Notes: generated by a model from the sequence alone, not told the origin. A stretch of 15,650 bases of DNA from a virus (IMGVR_UViG_2703718817_000011); one strand, 5' to 3'; shown: positions 8,951 through 12,398, numbered from the stretch's first letter. Made by a program: numbers and translations.

Positions 8951-9155
8951 TCCCCACCTATACCCACTTTTACTCCCCACTTTTCACAATTCCCCATCTC
9001 GTTAAAGGCGTGGGATTTGTAATTTTTATCATGCTGTTTCATAAGGATTTTTTTGCTCCCCACTTTTTGGGATGTATACAGGTCAAAAAGTGGGGGATTG
9101 TGTTTAAATTTTGTTAAATTCCCCATACCCACCACTTTTGCCACCCACTTTTTAC
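8951..9155. repeat. Putative replication origin: CCCCACTTTT-type iterons flanking an AT-rich segment
   Basis: At least six copies of CCACTTTT in both orientations (about 8965, 8977, 9060, 9084 inverted, 9133, 9146) around an AT-rich stretch at 9011-9056, immediately 3' of the replication gene. Confidence 0.5.
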
Positions 9156-10561
9156 AGTGGCCCTACATCATCGCCGTCAACATAGATAACGCCGTCTTTT
9201 TCCAGCTTGCCCAGCCAGCGCCGGAAGTGCTTTATTTCGTACCCCAGTTTTTTCATGTCATCACGTAACAGCGGGATCGTGCACTTGTCGCCGTTCTGTG
9301 TGCGTGAACGGATACACCCCCATAGCGCGGTATGGTTTTCCGTCTTGTTGCCTGCCTCTTCGATGCGCTCCAGTTCAACGGGAGGGCGCGGCTTATCCAC
9401 CACCACCAGCGACGTGATTAACTCCCCGTCAGCGTCGGTAAAAAGCTCCACCACCCGCAAATCATAGGCAGCCTCTTTGAGTTCCTCCGCGTCCTTCATT
9501 TTGGTGCATGAGATAACCAGCGCTTCGCTTCCTGCGTCCTCCCTGCGTATCCGGTATTCAGCATCCAGTGATGCACGAAATGCACTGGAACCGCGCGCGC
9601 CTTTCGTCTCATCCTTGCCGGAATGGTGAACCACCAGCACCGTGGCCCCTGTGCGTCGTTTCAGTTCGTCACACCCACGGATAAACGCCCCCATGTCGCG
9701 GGAGTCATTTTCATCATTGCCGCCAAAGCAGCGCGCCAGCGTGTCCAGAATAATCATGCGAACAGGTTTACCCGTTTCCCTCTCCACCTGACTGGCAGCA
9801 ATAACCAGTTCATCAACATCAAGCGGGACAGCCGGAAAGATGGGACGGTTTACCAGATACAGATTTTTCACCTGCTCACCGTGCACAACCTCCCAGGCTT
9901 TTACACGACGCGGAACGCCGATACCGCCTTCACCAACCACATAGAGAACAGCGCCATGCGCCACCCTGCGGCCTCCCCACTGGCGGCCCGTGGAAACGTG
10001 ACACGCCCACGATCCGGCAAGGAATGATTTATAGGAACCGCTCGCCCCGTATATGCTGCAAAGCGACGATGCCGGAATAATCCCCTTTACCACGTAATCA
10101 AGTTGTGTGTCGTATCCGGTAGATCCAACGCTCATCGGTAGCGTGGTTTTTCGCTGGGGGATTTTTTTCATGACCAGGCTTTCCCCGCGTTCCCATGCCT
10201 CCCTAAGCCGTGGAAGCTGGTCGCTCCATTCCTCCAGCAATTCGAAATTTTCAGAAAGTAGCCGCGCCTCCTGGACTCCGGCGATCGCCAGTTTCGTGGC
10301 GATGGTTAACAGCTGCGGCTCTTCAATATTTCCGGCGCGTATCACCGTCGCCCTGTATCGCCCATCATCAACAATCTGGAGGTTATCCAGTTCGCTTAAC
10401 TGATAACGCCCCAGATAAACGGGAGGGACTGGATCGCCTGCTTTTTTGGCCTGTGCAATGATGTAATGCTCTGCGAATGAGTGAGCATCAATACCCGCAA
10501 AAATAATCGCATCGGTGTATTTGTCTTTCGGTAATAGTTTTACGTTCGGTGCCAGTTTCAT
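9152..10561 (-). CDS. Replication initiator/helicase-type ATPase (AAA_25/RepA-like), candidate PICI Pri-Rep
   Basis: 469 aa with Walker A GASGSYKS, Walker B-like MIILDTL and an HHSGK motif typical of AAA_25 RecA-like replication proteins; N-terminal domain about 150 aa of unknown type. Confidence 0.7.
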   Translation of the reverse strand: MKLAPNVKLLPKDKYTDAIIFAGIDAHSFAEHYIIAQAKKAGDPVPPVYLGRYQLSELDNLQIVDDGRYRATVIRAGNIEEPQLLTIATKLAIAGVQEARLLSENFELLEEWSDQLPRLREAWERGESLVMKKIPQRKTTLPMSVGSTGYDTQLDYVVKGIIPASSLCSIYGASGSYKSFLAGSWACHVSTGRQWGGRRVAHGAVLYVVGEGGIGVPRRVKAWEVVHGEQVKNLYLVNRPIFPAVPLDVDELVIAASQVERETGKPVRMIILDTLARCFGGNDENDSRDMGAFIRGCDELKRRTGATVLVVHHSGKDETKGARGSSAFRASLDAEYRIRREDAGSEALVISCTKMKDAEELKEAAYDLRVVELFTDADGELITSLVVVDKPRPPVELERIEEAGNKTENHTALWGCIRSRTQNGDKCTIPLLRDDMKKLGYEIKHFRRWLGKLEKDGVIYVDGDDVGPL

Positions 10562-10857
10562 TTTTTACCCCTGAATCCGTTAATCATGGTTTTCAGCTTC
10601 TGGATGTTTGCCCGTGCCCTGACGTTGCTGGTGGGCACGTTATGCGGCGCGGTCTGTACCAGAGAAAAATCACGCCGGAACTGATAAACAGGCATCACGC
10701 AATCATATTCGTAACCTTCACGGCGGTAAGTTACGCACCGTCCCGCCACGCCCTTAATCATTACCGTGCCGCCGTACTGGTCGCGGTAAATATCACCGCG
10801 CGTAAATTTAGGGTGAGTGTTGCCACTGGCAGTTAAGCCAGAATATTTAAGTTTCAT
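10558..10857 (-). CDS. Hypothetical protein (99 aa)
   Basis: ATG 10857 with a GGAGAA SD; ATGA overlap with the rep start. Confidence 0.5.
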   Translation of the reverse strand: MKLKYSGLTASGNTHPKFTRGDIYRDQYGGTVMIKGVAGRCVTYRREGYEYDCVMPVYQFRRDFSLVQTAPHNVPTSNVRARANIQKLKTMINGFRGKK

Positions 10858-10862
10858 TATTT

Positions 10863-11096
10863 TTATTCTCCGGTGTGCTGTTCGTTATATCTGTCGTGCA
10901 ATGTCTCTATTTCCTGCAACTCATTTATTACAGGCTCAAGAAGCGTTATTAATGCCGTGACAATTCTTGATTTTTGTTTGTCGCGTTCATTGTCGCCAAG
11001 TGTTTCAAGCCATATGCGCAATATTTCCAGCATGTTTTCACTGTGAGAAAGTGCAAGAAATACGCGTTCTGTTGTTTCGTGGTAAATATCACGCAT
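10863..11096 (-). CDS. Hypothetical protein (77 aa)
   Basis: ORF overlapping the upstream gene by 8 nt. Confidence 0.45.
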   Translation of the reverse strand: MRDIYHETTERVFLALSHSENMLEILRIWLETLGDNERDKQKSRIVTALITLLEPVINELQEIETLHDRYNEQHTGE

Positions 11097-11322
11097 GGCT
11101 TACATCCTCAGGAAATTTTCTTCTGTAACGCGCCTCTGCCACATATTCCGCATAATCGGCGGCGATATTCAGTACATCAAGTCCCGTTGATTTATATTCT
11201 TTCGTGGAAAGTAAGAAAAAAGCCGCTCTAATAAGTTCTGGCATTGACGAAAGCGCATCAGCCGCATCATCAGATACGCCGGAAAATTCTTGTTTCAGGG
11301 AATAAAAACGATCATCACGCAT
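11089..11322 (-). CDS. Hypothetical protein (77 aa), possibly the C-terminal part of a gene split at a G9 tract
   Basis: ATG 11322 lies 2 nt after a 9-G homopolymer (minus strand); no properly spaced SD. Confidence 0.4.
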   Translation of the reverse strand: MRDDRFYSLKQEFSGVSDDAADALSSMPELIRAAFFLLSTKEYKSTGLDVLNIAADYAEYVAEARYRRKFPEDVSHA

Positions 11323-11555
11323 AACCCCCCCCCATTTTCACAATCAGCAATCAGGATAGCTTTGGCCTCATTCAGCGCCATATCAGCACTAAGTTGCATA
11401 ACCGCCAGCGAATGAGGAACGAAAGCCCCGGCATATTCTGTTTCGCTGGTGGCGTGCTTATGTGCCCTGTCCGCGATAACAGAAATATCAATCAGCGCGT
11501 GCATCAGCGTTTTGATGGCTTCGGCGGCTGCGTCCGGTGTGGTTTTATTGTGCAT
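11295..11555 (-). CDS. Hypothetical protein (86 aa), possibly the N-terminal part of a gene split at a G9 tract
   Basis: ORF ends in a hydrophobic tail (LCVMIVFIP) right after the homopolymer; a +1 G would fuse it in frame to 11089..11322. Confidence 0.4.
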   Translation of the reverse strand: MHNKTTPDAAAEAIKTLMHALIDISVIADRAHKHATSETEYAGAFVPHSLAVMQLSADMALNEAKAILIADCENGGGLCVMIVFIP

Positions 11556-11757
11556 AAAGCATCCCCTGAATATTCGTGTTAATCATTCCGGCACGTTTTG
11601 TGATTTCCTGTAATGATTCCCTTGTGGCGACAATTGCTTCATCTGGTAAGTGGTAATTACACACCACGCGACCTTTATCCACATTGACCAGTAGCTGCCC
11701 TGTGAATTTCTCACGAAACTGAATGCGGTTAAGGTCAGTAAGTGACAGATTAATCAT
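11545..11757 (-). CDS. Hypothetical protein (70 aa)
   Basis: ATG 11757 preceded by a strong AGGAGGTG SD and overlapping the upstream stop. Confidence 0.5.
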   Translation of the reverse strand: MINLSLTDLNRIQFREKFTGQLLVNVDKGRVVCNYHLPDEAIVATRESLQEITKRAGMINTNIQGMLYAQ

Positions 11758-12307
11758 GGCGCACCTCCTGACGAATACGGGCGGCAAATACAGCAACACA
11801 ACCGGACGGGCAACGGTTACGCGCTTCGCGTTCCGTCCAGGCGGTTACGTGGATGATTTGATGGTCTGACGCGCCAAAGGCAATAAAGCGCCAGATAAAG
11901 GCTGTTTGAGAATGTACGAGGGCAGGGGTAGTAGCCATGTTGGCAGCCTCCTCAGTGTGGTTAAGATAACCGCCACGCAAAAGGCTAATTTCGCTGGTGG
12001 CGGACTGTACAGGGTTAGCCTTACCGGACACTGAAGAAACCGGCGCGGATTGCTCCGCCCCCGTACAGCCCACCATTGATAAGGTGTGACTATGCGGCAC
12101 AAAAAAACACGCGGGACGCGTGCTGTGCGCTTCAGTTGTTTTCAGGAGGCTAATCCCGACACCCGTTTTATGAGGTGCGCGGGAATCATAGCTATTTTCG
12201 ACACTGGCGATCAACTGGTTTTTTTCTCCGATATTCAGGGCCAGAAAACGCCACACAAAGGCAGTTTGTGTGTGTACAAGGTGTGGTATATGATTTACAG
12301 CAACCAT
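11750..12307 (-). CDS. Icd-like (P4 host cell division inhibitor-like) protein with tandem duplicated domain and internal start
   Basis: ATG 12307 with an AGGAG SD; two copies of an LVH(T/S)QTAF(V/I)WRF segment; second in-frame ATG at 11938 has its own GAGGAGG SD; Icd-like call from recollection of P4-like island proteins. Confidence 0.5.
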   Translation of the reverse strand: MVAVNHIPHLVHTQTAFVWRFLALNIGEKNQLIASVENSYDSRAPHKTGVGISLLKTTEAHSTRPACFFVPHSHTLSMVGCTGAEQSAPVSSVSGKANPVQSATSEISLLRGGYLNHTEEAANMATTPALVHSQTAFIWRFIAFGASDHQIIHVTAWTEREARNRCPSGCVAVFAARIRQEVRHD

Positions 12308-12398
12308 AACGGCTCCTAGTTTACGTTGTTGGTTAGAAGCCCTGCGAGTGGTAACGACACTTGCGGGGCTTTGTCTTTTCATCGATTACCTTGATAAA

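Follow-up and report, generated by a model that had tools for sequence, protein, structure and literature searches.

A length-variable G run at the junction of two small genes in the early operon of a putative capsid-forming PICI of Escherichia coli

Results

The element and its early operon

The window (the whole stretch of 15,650 bases that was analyzed) is 99.0–99.9% identical to a ~15-kb island in tqsA of E. coli O22:H8 RM10809-3. Based on the RefSeq annotation, the early part of the RM10809-3 island encodes an integrase, an HTH regulator, an Icd-like protein, small hypothetical proteins, DUF4222, and a RepA-family helicase, and the rest comprises SSB, PerC, major capsid, prohead protease, portal, head closure, head-tail connector, HNH, TerS, and TerL genes, with no tail genes in the annotation. 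A Pfam search of the window itself returned the integrase, DUF4222, and the helicase (AAA_25). The combination of ~15 kb, head genes of its own, and no tail genes, here taken from the RM10809-3 annotation, is that of the capsid-forming PICI (cf-PICI) family, defined with EcCIEDL933 as the prototype (Alqurainy et al., bioRxiv 10.1101/2022.09.08.507074), and the gene content indicates that the window is an EcCIEDL933-type cf-PICI in tqsA. The gene order of EcCIEDL933 is the same (int, regulatory/early genes, RepA-type replication, SSB, PerC, and the capsid-to-TerL genes in ~15 kb). Induction of EcCIEDL933 depends on a helper phage and its transfer occurs in small capsids (10.1101/2022.09.08.507074). 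The small ORFs and the G run described here are not discussed in that paper.

The first 724 bases of the window are chromosomal flank (a tqsA fragment beside ydgV/mdtJ), and tqsA is split by the element in RM10809-3. Two differences from the RM10809-3 element were found outside the genes of interest. A region of ~360 nt (11862–12223) that contains the C4 and isrK RNA genes is missing from RM10809-3, showing that close relatives differ in the antisense-RNA control region. In addition, the helicase ORF is intact in the window (469 aa) and 'frameshifted' in RM10809-3, with two gaps over 11.2 kb.

The early operon runs in the order isrK/C4 RNA, icd-like ORF, a chain of small overlapping ORFs, DUF4222, and RepA helicase (Table 1). 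Two of the small ORFs, hereafter gene A and gene B, lie in a 'payload' position, after C4/icd and before the replication genes. The same layout (C4 RNA, icd-like ORF, downstream payload) is found in the immI operon of phage P1 (c4-icd-ant1/2), the order of which is summarized as c4-icd-ant in PMC8198154; with C4 and isrK directly upstream of the Icd-like ORF, the run therefore sits in a P1 immI-like operon. Another paper considered as a source for phage icd (PMC10111431) was set aside, since it concerns the isocitrate dehydrogenase gene icd. Between positions 10558 and 11950, the small ORFs are chained by start/stop overlaps of 4–11 nt, among which ATGCGTGA occurs twice, and in such a chain the gain or loss of one base near a junction easily fuses neighbors. 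An ORF of 210 aa (11750..12382) with a Pfam Phage_ASH match overlaps both RNA genes, and its N-terminal part may for that reason be non-coding.

Table 1 Features of the gene A/gene B junction and of the early operon in the window
Feature	Position	Strand	Description
RepA-family helicase	9152..10561	-	replication module, downstream in the same operon
DUF4222 gene	10558..10857	-	replication module, downstream in the same operon
Next small gene	10863..11096	-	77 aa, phrog_2196; overlaps gene B through ATGCGTGA
Gene B (C-half)	11089..11322	-	77 aa, MRDDRF...EDVSHA; phrog_24341 (C-only) and second half of phrog_2512
Near-zero-substitution island	11280..11378	-	about 45 nt to either side of the run, third codon positions included
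Gene A (N-half)	11295..11555	-	86 aa in the G9 allele; phrog_5146 (N-only) and first half of phrog_2512
ATGCGTGA motif	11315..11322	-	gene B ATG 11320–11322, TGA 11315–11317
G9 homopolymer	11325..11333	-	C9 on the + strand; Gly codons of the gene A 3' end; predicted gene B Shine-Dalgarno; length-polymorphic
Upstream small gene	11545..11757	-	70 aa, phrog_340; chain of overlapping ORFs
Icd-like ORF, 3' part	11750 to about 11950	-	just downstream of C4/isrK
C4 antisense RNA	11993..12080	-	Rfam, 75.4 bits, above gathering score
isrK RNA	12102..12178	-	Rfam, 61.6 bits, above gathering score

The junction of gene A and gene B

A preliminary description of this DNA had noted a nine-G run in minus-strand sense between two out-of-frame ORFs, and the sequence confirms the run as well as both ORFs with their boundaries (86 and 77 aa). 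Read in this sense, the junction consists of GATTGTGAAAAT, the run itself (GGGGGGGGG), TT, and ATGCGTGATGATCG, such that the gene B start codon follows the run after 2 nt and the run lies inside coding sequence, at the 3' end of gene A. It is the only homopolymer of at least nine bases in the window. By chance, a window would contain 0.12 G9 or C9 runs on average, and one or more such runs appeared in 19 of 200 shuffled sequences; G9 alone is thus only mildly unusual, and its position at a gene junction together with its length polymorphism is the part that chance does not explain.

Run length determines where gene A ends. In the G9 allele, the conserved body of gene A (...AILIADCENGGG) is followed by a 9-aa out-of-frame tail, LCVMIVFIP, which is the short hydrophobic tail that had been described, and translation stops at TGA 11295–11297, 25 nt past the gene B ATG; the TGA within ATGCGTGA is out of frame. 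In G8 alleles, this same TGA is the gene A stop (gene A ends GGT TAT GCG TGA and gene B starts within ATGCGTGA), which yields a canonical 8-nt stop/start overlap, and G7 and G10 alleles have no stop between A and B. The prediction that one additional G would fuse the ORFs into a protein of about 155 aa is borne out by a natural G10 allele, that of E. coli 042, which encodes a single 155-aa CDS (WP_000551671.1). The motif ATGCGTGA is also present at the next junction (11089–11096), where again a start codon overlaps the preceding stop. The G8 state thus recreates the canonical junction of the operon, which favors a two-gene organization.

No family or function could be assigned to A or B from sequence searches of Pfam, NCBIfam, PADLOC, and PDB, and the PHROGs matches were confined to families without an assigned function. 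An AlphaFold2 model of the fused protein, of low confidence (pLDDT 52), is all helical, with two hairpins and a disordered linker across the Gly run. Neither the 1.1-kb region (megablast) nor the fused protein (tblastn) had a match in the phage collection, and the A/B family was seen solely in integrated elements. In a search with one genome per species, the sole hit was a copy in Shigella flexneri, a G8 allele with a truncated B.

Run length in natural homologues

The run spans G4 to G11 across homologues, and annotated complete genomes illustrate both gene configurations: two CDSs in RM10809-3 (G9; 86 + 77 aa) and 95NR1 (G8; 79 + 77 aa), one CDS in O157:H7 PV15-279 (G7; 154 aa) and E. coli 042 (G10; 155 aa). 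Among 268 complete genomes with identical flanks (exact 40 + 20 nt), 232 had G7, 22 had G8, nine had G9, and one had G10. The G7 set belongs mostly to the O157:H7 lineage, in which every listed genome had G7, and a single G6 was found (UTAK-1); all seven listed O55:H7 genomes had G8. Using a 43-nt junction query in sensitive mode, the junction was detected in 737 of 5426 complete E. coli genomes, with exactly G8 in 207 of them. A sample of 60 evenly spaced records contained about 26 G7, 17 G8, 15 G9, 1 G10, and 1 G4-like alleles. Taken together with the mostly O157:H7 composition of the G7 set, this sample provides the estimate that the split G8 and G9 forms appear to be the majority beyond the O157:H7 clone.

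A larger comparison, in which the IMG/VR loci were combined with the above complete-genome loci (79 loci), gave 24 G7, 24 G8, 18 G9, five G10, two G11, three G4, and three GGGGGTGG. This distribution is smooth and unimodal without a three-base periodicity, and the run comprises at least seven uninterrupted G's in 73 of the 79 loci. The comparison of tract lengths that had been proposed for homologous elements therefore reveals a range from G4 to G11 with many independent changes.

The possibility that G9 is a sequencing or assembly error, which had been raised for this homopolymer, is contradicted by these data. The exact 86-aa G9 product is present on 701 public contigs (79-aa G8 product: 912 contigs; 77-aa gene B product: at least 1000 contigs), G9 occurs in nine complete genomes with identical flanks, and lengths are consistent within lineages across sequencing platforms. 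Strains that were sequenced twice agree: ATCC 25922 and 'FDA strain Seattle 1946' both have G8, and RM9872 and RM9872-C1 both have G7. The G9 of the window is a genuine, common two-gene allele.

Two candidate examples of fused alleles were rejected. The G4 alleles (GAATATGGGGTTATG; L094 [NZ_CP182371.1] and P0181), considered as clean 'locked fused' cases, lie inside long ORFs annotated as a 410-aa 'Icd-like protein' with a junk-like N-terminus. This N-terminal part looks like out-of-frame read-through, so these ORFs probably contain a disrupted N-half and do not encode a true multidomain protein. The other candidate was a second fused/split pair from a distant clade (P0224 vs. P0207), in which the 'fused' sequence comes from an error-prone JGI contig: the metagenome contig L091 has five single-base homopolymer indels in 559 nt relative to the near-identical Logan contig L092, and the apparent 144-aa fused homologue P0224 is a sequencing artefact.

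Pace of length change and the conserved island

Run length differs among otherwise almost identical sequences. Loci with identical 800-nt flanks (0 differences) were found with G7 and G8, and one flank substitution in 800 nt separates pairs of G7/G10, G9/G10, G7/G9, and G8/G9 alleles; over 1062 nt, RM10042 differs from the window solely by G8 instead of G9. On a neighbor-joining tree of 74 loci, which is distorted by recombination between modules, the run state needs at least 35 changes (Fitch parsimony), a count that may be inflated because some IMG/VR loci are old drafts with possible homopolymer miscalls. Shuffled labels on this tree needed 40.4 changes on average (minimum 34), and the flanking alignment columns needed 4.4 (maximum 22). 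Run length is thus independent of phylogeny, nearly as random labels would be. Within clones the length is stable, which suggests a pace nearer to ordinary homopolymer instability than to classical high-frequency phase variation.

The nucleotides around the run show the opposite behavior. Third codon positions have a mean of 7.0 Fitch changes in the N-half and 4.6 in the C-half, but none where the genes meet, over the final four codons of A and the initial seven of B. Outside this island (Table 1) both genes are divergent and mosaic, and the sequence types of the N-half and the C-half assort in all combinations. An island combined with free assortment indicates that the junction behaves at once like a translation-initiation region under constraint and like a conserved joint for module exchange; the cause of the island may be translation-initiation constraint, a recombination joint, or a cis element.

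Two independently conserved genes

Homologues in which each half stands without the other were found at several loci. In distant relatives (L005–L007), the N-half is free-standing (77–84 aa) and followed by unrelated genes, without a long run and with a GGGGG Shine-Dalgarno (SD) sequence 6–8 nt ahead of the next ATG. A near-identical N-half in L067–L072 ends ...CENGGGDYAK*, with the codons GGC GGG GGC, and precedes a different downstream gene. In L092, a 77-aa N-half and a 70-aa B-like gene are separate and overlap by ATGAATAA. The C-half module also forms the C-terminal domain of a protein of 167 aa (L095:1501-2004), with CTG at the position of the ATG and without a G run; the N-terminal part of this protein resembles the upstream 70-aa gene of the window. 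Accordingly, PHROGs holds N-only (phrog_5146), C-only (phrog_24341), and fused (phrog_2512) families. The view that a frameshift broke a single gene fails on this evidence, as A and B are independently conserved at junctions without a homopolymer, which is the finding that the preliminary description had itself named as contradicting it.

Selection on the two halves differs little between configurations. The dN/dS of gene B is 0.24–0.28 in split alleles and 0.30–0.34 in fused alleles, that of gene A has a median of about 0.27 in split and fused alleles alike, and dS elsewhere is about 0.7. In-frame stops in either half were found in only three of 77 loci examined (L010, L033, and L035), gene B is intact in nearly all alleles regardless of frame, and the interrupted split alleles (GGGGGTGG) keep both ORFs intact. 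These values point to purifying selection on both halves in split as well as fused configurations. The fused protein would likewise be a real natural product; its form is fixed in the whole O157:H7 lineage, and a fusion fixed across that lineage may have a distinct function. RefSeq is inconsistent for this locus, with two CDSs, one CDS, or, for the G9 allele of E. coli O111 RM9322, a 'frameshifted' pseudogene called by PGAP.

Ribosome binding and recoding

Gene B had been described as lacking a properly spaced SD. This does not hold for the predicted pairing of the G run with the 16S anti-SD, which amounts to −11.1 kcal/mol, second in the operon to an AGGAGGT site (−11.6), and such strong pairing provides gene B with a predicted ribosome-binding site. 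With 7–11 G's, the 5-nt core can sit 2–6 nt or more from the AUG. This predicted SD lies inside gene A; the run probably serves as the SD, and gene B is probably translated in split alleles.

A programmed frameshift, also suggested earlier, would be formally possible in G9, where G GGG GGG forms an X XXY YYZ zero-frame heptamer and a −1 shift would give the exact G10 product (...NGGGVMRDD...). However, the relation between the frames varies (no shift in G7/G10, +1 needed in G8, −1 in G9) with all three states common, run length is not conserved, and folding of the 116 nt around and after the run revealed no RNA structure beyond chance (z = 0.15; in 106 of 200 shuffles the fold was equally good or better). 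Without a conserved frame or a fold signal, and with in-frame genomic alleles being common, programmed frameshifting is unsupported. Low-level, unprogrammed slippage of the ribosome or the RNA polymerase on the run is possible.

Discussion

The explanation that we consider probable is that a slippage-prone run, used both as Gly codons and as a ribosome-binding site, toggles two coupled genes between fused and split states at little apparent cost. Under this explanation, A (about 75 aa) and B (77 aa) would be small helical proteins from adjacent genes, and the run would do double duty by encoding the Gly-Gly(-Gly) end of A and binding the ribosome for B. Being a G:C homopolymer of 7–11 nt, it would be subject to replication slippage and hence change length far faster than bases are substituted. 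G7 and G10 would produce an A–B fusion of 154 or 155 aa that retains the internal start of B, G8 would produce an A of 79 aa and B with the tight ATGCGTGA overlap, and the G9 of the window would produce an A of 86 aa with the 9-aa tail, and B. In any frame, ribosomes would either read into B or terminate within 27 nt of the B start, beside a strong predicted SD, so that both modules would still be made and the change tolerated. Slippage with tolerated frames would explain why the lengths are distributed smoothly and why the selective constraint is unchanged, and the toggle is likely to be near-neutral.

One rival reading, an artefact or decay (a G9 miscall, or a dead, frameshifted pseudogene of one 155-aa gene), can draw on the PGAP label of RM9322 and on the abundance of fused forms. 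It is extremely improbable given the 701 contigs with the 86-aa product, the presence of G9 in nine complete genomes of unrelated strains, the rarity of in-frame stops, the intact ORFs of GGGGGTGG alleles, and a dN/dS of about 0.25 in split alleles, which shows no relaxed selection. Recoding in G9, by which a −1 ribosomal slip or RNA-polymerase slippage would add the 155-aa fusion to the 86-aa product in a programmed ratio, has in its favor the formally perfect heptamer, the G10 product that a −1 shift yields, and the SD-like nature of the run, as internal SD-like sequences can stimulate frameshifting (e.g., dnaX and prfB). We regard it as very unlikely, because the frame relation is not conserved and no stable downstream structure was detected; the documented cases of programmed transcriptional slippage are, to our knowledge, on A/T runs and not on G runs. 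Established −1 frameshift sites (dnaX A AAA AAG, lambda G/GT G GGA AAG, and IS3-family transposases) likewise have two out-of-frame, overlapping ORFs at a slippery homopolymer, and in both cases fusion would roughly double the upstream product in size. The A/B pair differs from them in having no conserved frame, stimulatory structure, or run length, and in its common in-frame genomic alleles.

A true contingency locus, at which mutability itself is useful and fused/split or B-level switching alters the satellite phenotype (helper sensing, interference, or replication control) as bet-hedging, is the main rival, even though we consider it unlikely. Poly-G/C contingency loci that split and fuse ORFs are known from Campylobacter jejuni NCTC 11168 (Cj0031/32 and Cj1325/26), and from phase-variable genes of Neisseria and Haemophilus. 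These share with the A/B junction a G:C homopolymer in coding sequence, polymorphism among close relatives, frame shifts by one base, and annotation as fused or split genes. In the same direction point the uninterrupted run of at least seven G's in nearly all loci despite a dS of about 0.7 elsewhere, the near absence of phylogenetic signal in its length, the three frames that are all common in nature, the location of the run in a nucleotide-conserved island, and the fact that L067–L072 encode Gly-Gly-Gly without a homopolymer. A run kept uninterrupted within the island could mean selection for mutability rather than for SD or Gly functions. However, SD function alone could account for the retained G's, and length is stable within clones (232 complete genomes with G7, mostly of the O157:H7 lineage, and one G6; G8 in all seven listed O55:H7 genomes; and resequenced strains in agreement). 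Moreover, no frame is clearly OFF, since B keeps its own start and predicted SD and stays under selection. The earlier suggestion of a slipped-strand phase-variable gene therefore stands with respect to a length-variable slippage tract, but not with respect to ON/OFF switching of one broken gene, given the independent genes in distant relatives and the selection on both halves. Compared to the Campylobacter, Neisseria, and Haemophilus loci, this run is located on a phage satellite, is stable within clones, precedes an autonomous gene with its own start and predicted SD, and resides in mismatch-repair-proficient E. coli, where such loci are uncommon. A stronger version of the same idea, in which the run is a selected three-state satellite switch (fused, tightly coupled, or loosely coupled pair) that alters helper-phage response or interference, within a conserved 90-nt cassette that also serves module-exchange recombination, is a speculation that we consider distinctly unlikely.

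Returning to the proposed toggle of coupled genes, its components have parallels in phage early operons. Coupled, overlapping early genes (ATGA/ATGnnTGA) share with the A/B pair a predicted downstream SD inside the upstream gene and, in G8, the 8-nt ATGCGTGA overlap; the difference here is a predicted SD that has grown into a long, unstable homopolymer. In P1, Ant1 and Ant2 share one ORF through an internal start, and by analogy a fused allele with an internal ATG could behave in a similar manner. Ant1 and Ant2 are related anti-repressors and function as a dimer (PMC8198154), whereas the A and B proteins have no similarity to Ant. With respect to the EcCIEDL933 lineage, the window carries the G9 split allele, whereas the EDL933 lineage (O157:H7) has the same gene at 97% DNA identity but with G7.

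No relevant paper on this run, or on homopolymers in PICIs, came up in literature searches. Poly-G runs whose length splits or fuses ORFs have been described before, and what is unusual is the setting: E. coli, the early operon of a cf-PICI, a run that coincides with a predicted SD, and a layout that appears to tolerate every frame. The locus is a natural case of one homopolymer that is at once coding sequence, predicted ribosome-binding site, and mutational hotspot, in a layout that would tolerate all three frames. Should the states differ in function, the run would give cf-PICIs a switch in their regulatory/early region that is both heritable and reversible; this satellite family occurs in about 14% of complete E. 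coli genomes, O157:H7 among them. For annotation, a single G decides whether the RefSeq entry is a pair of CDSs, one CDS, or a 'frameshifted' pseudogene. Since the split alleles are genuine and conserved and probably have a function, they should not be classed as errors or pseudogenes.

Some genomes hold up to four copies of the junction, and copies can differ in the run within one genome. In E. coli OkiPb01698 (NZ_AP042585.1), the copy at about 1,298,750 has G8, and the second copy, near 1,335,000, has G7 as deduced from its match length of 1060 nt.
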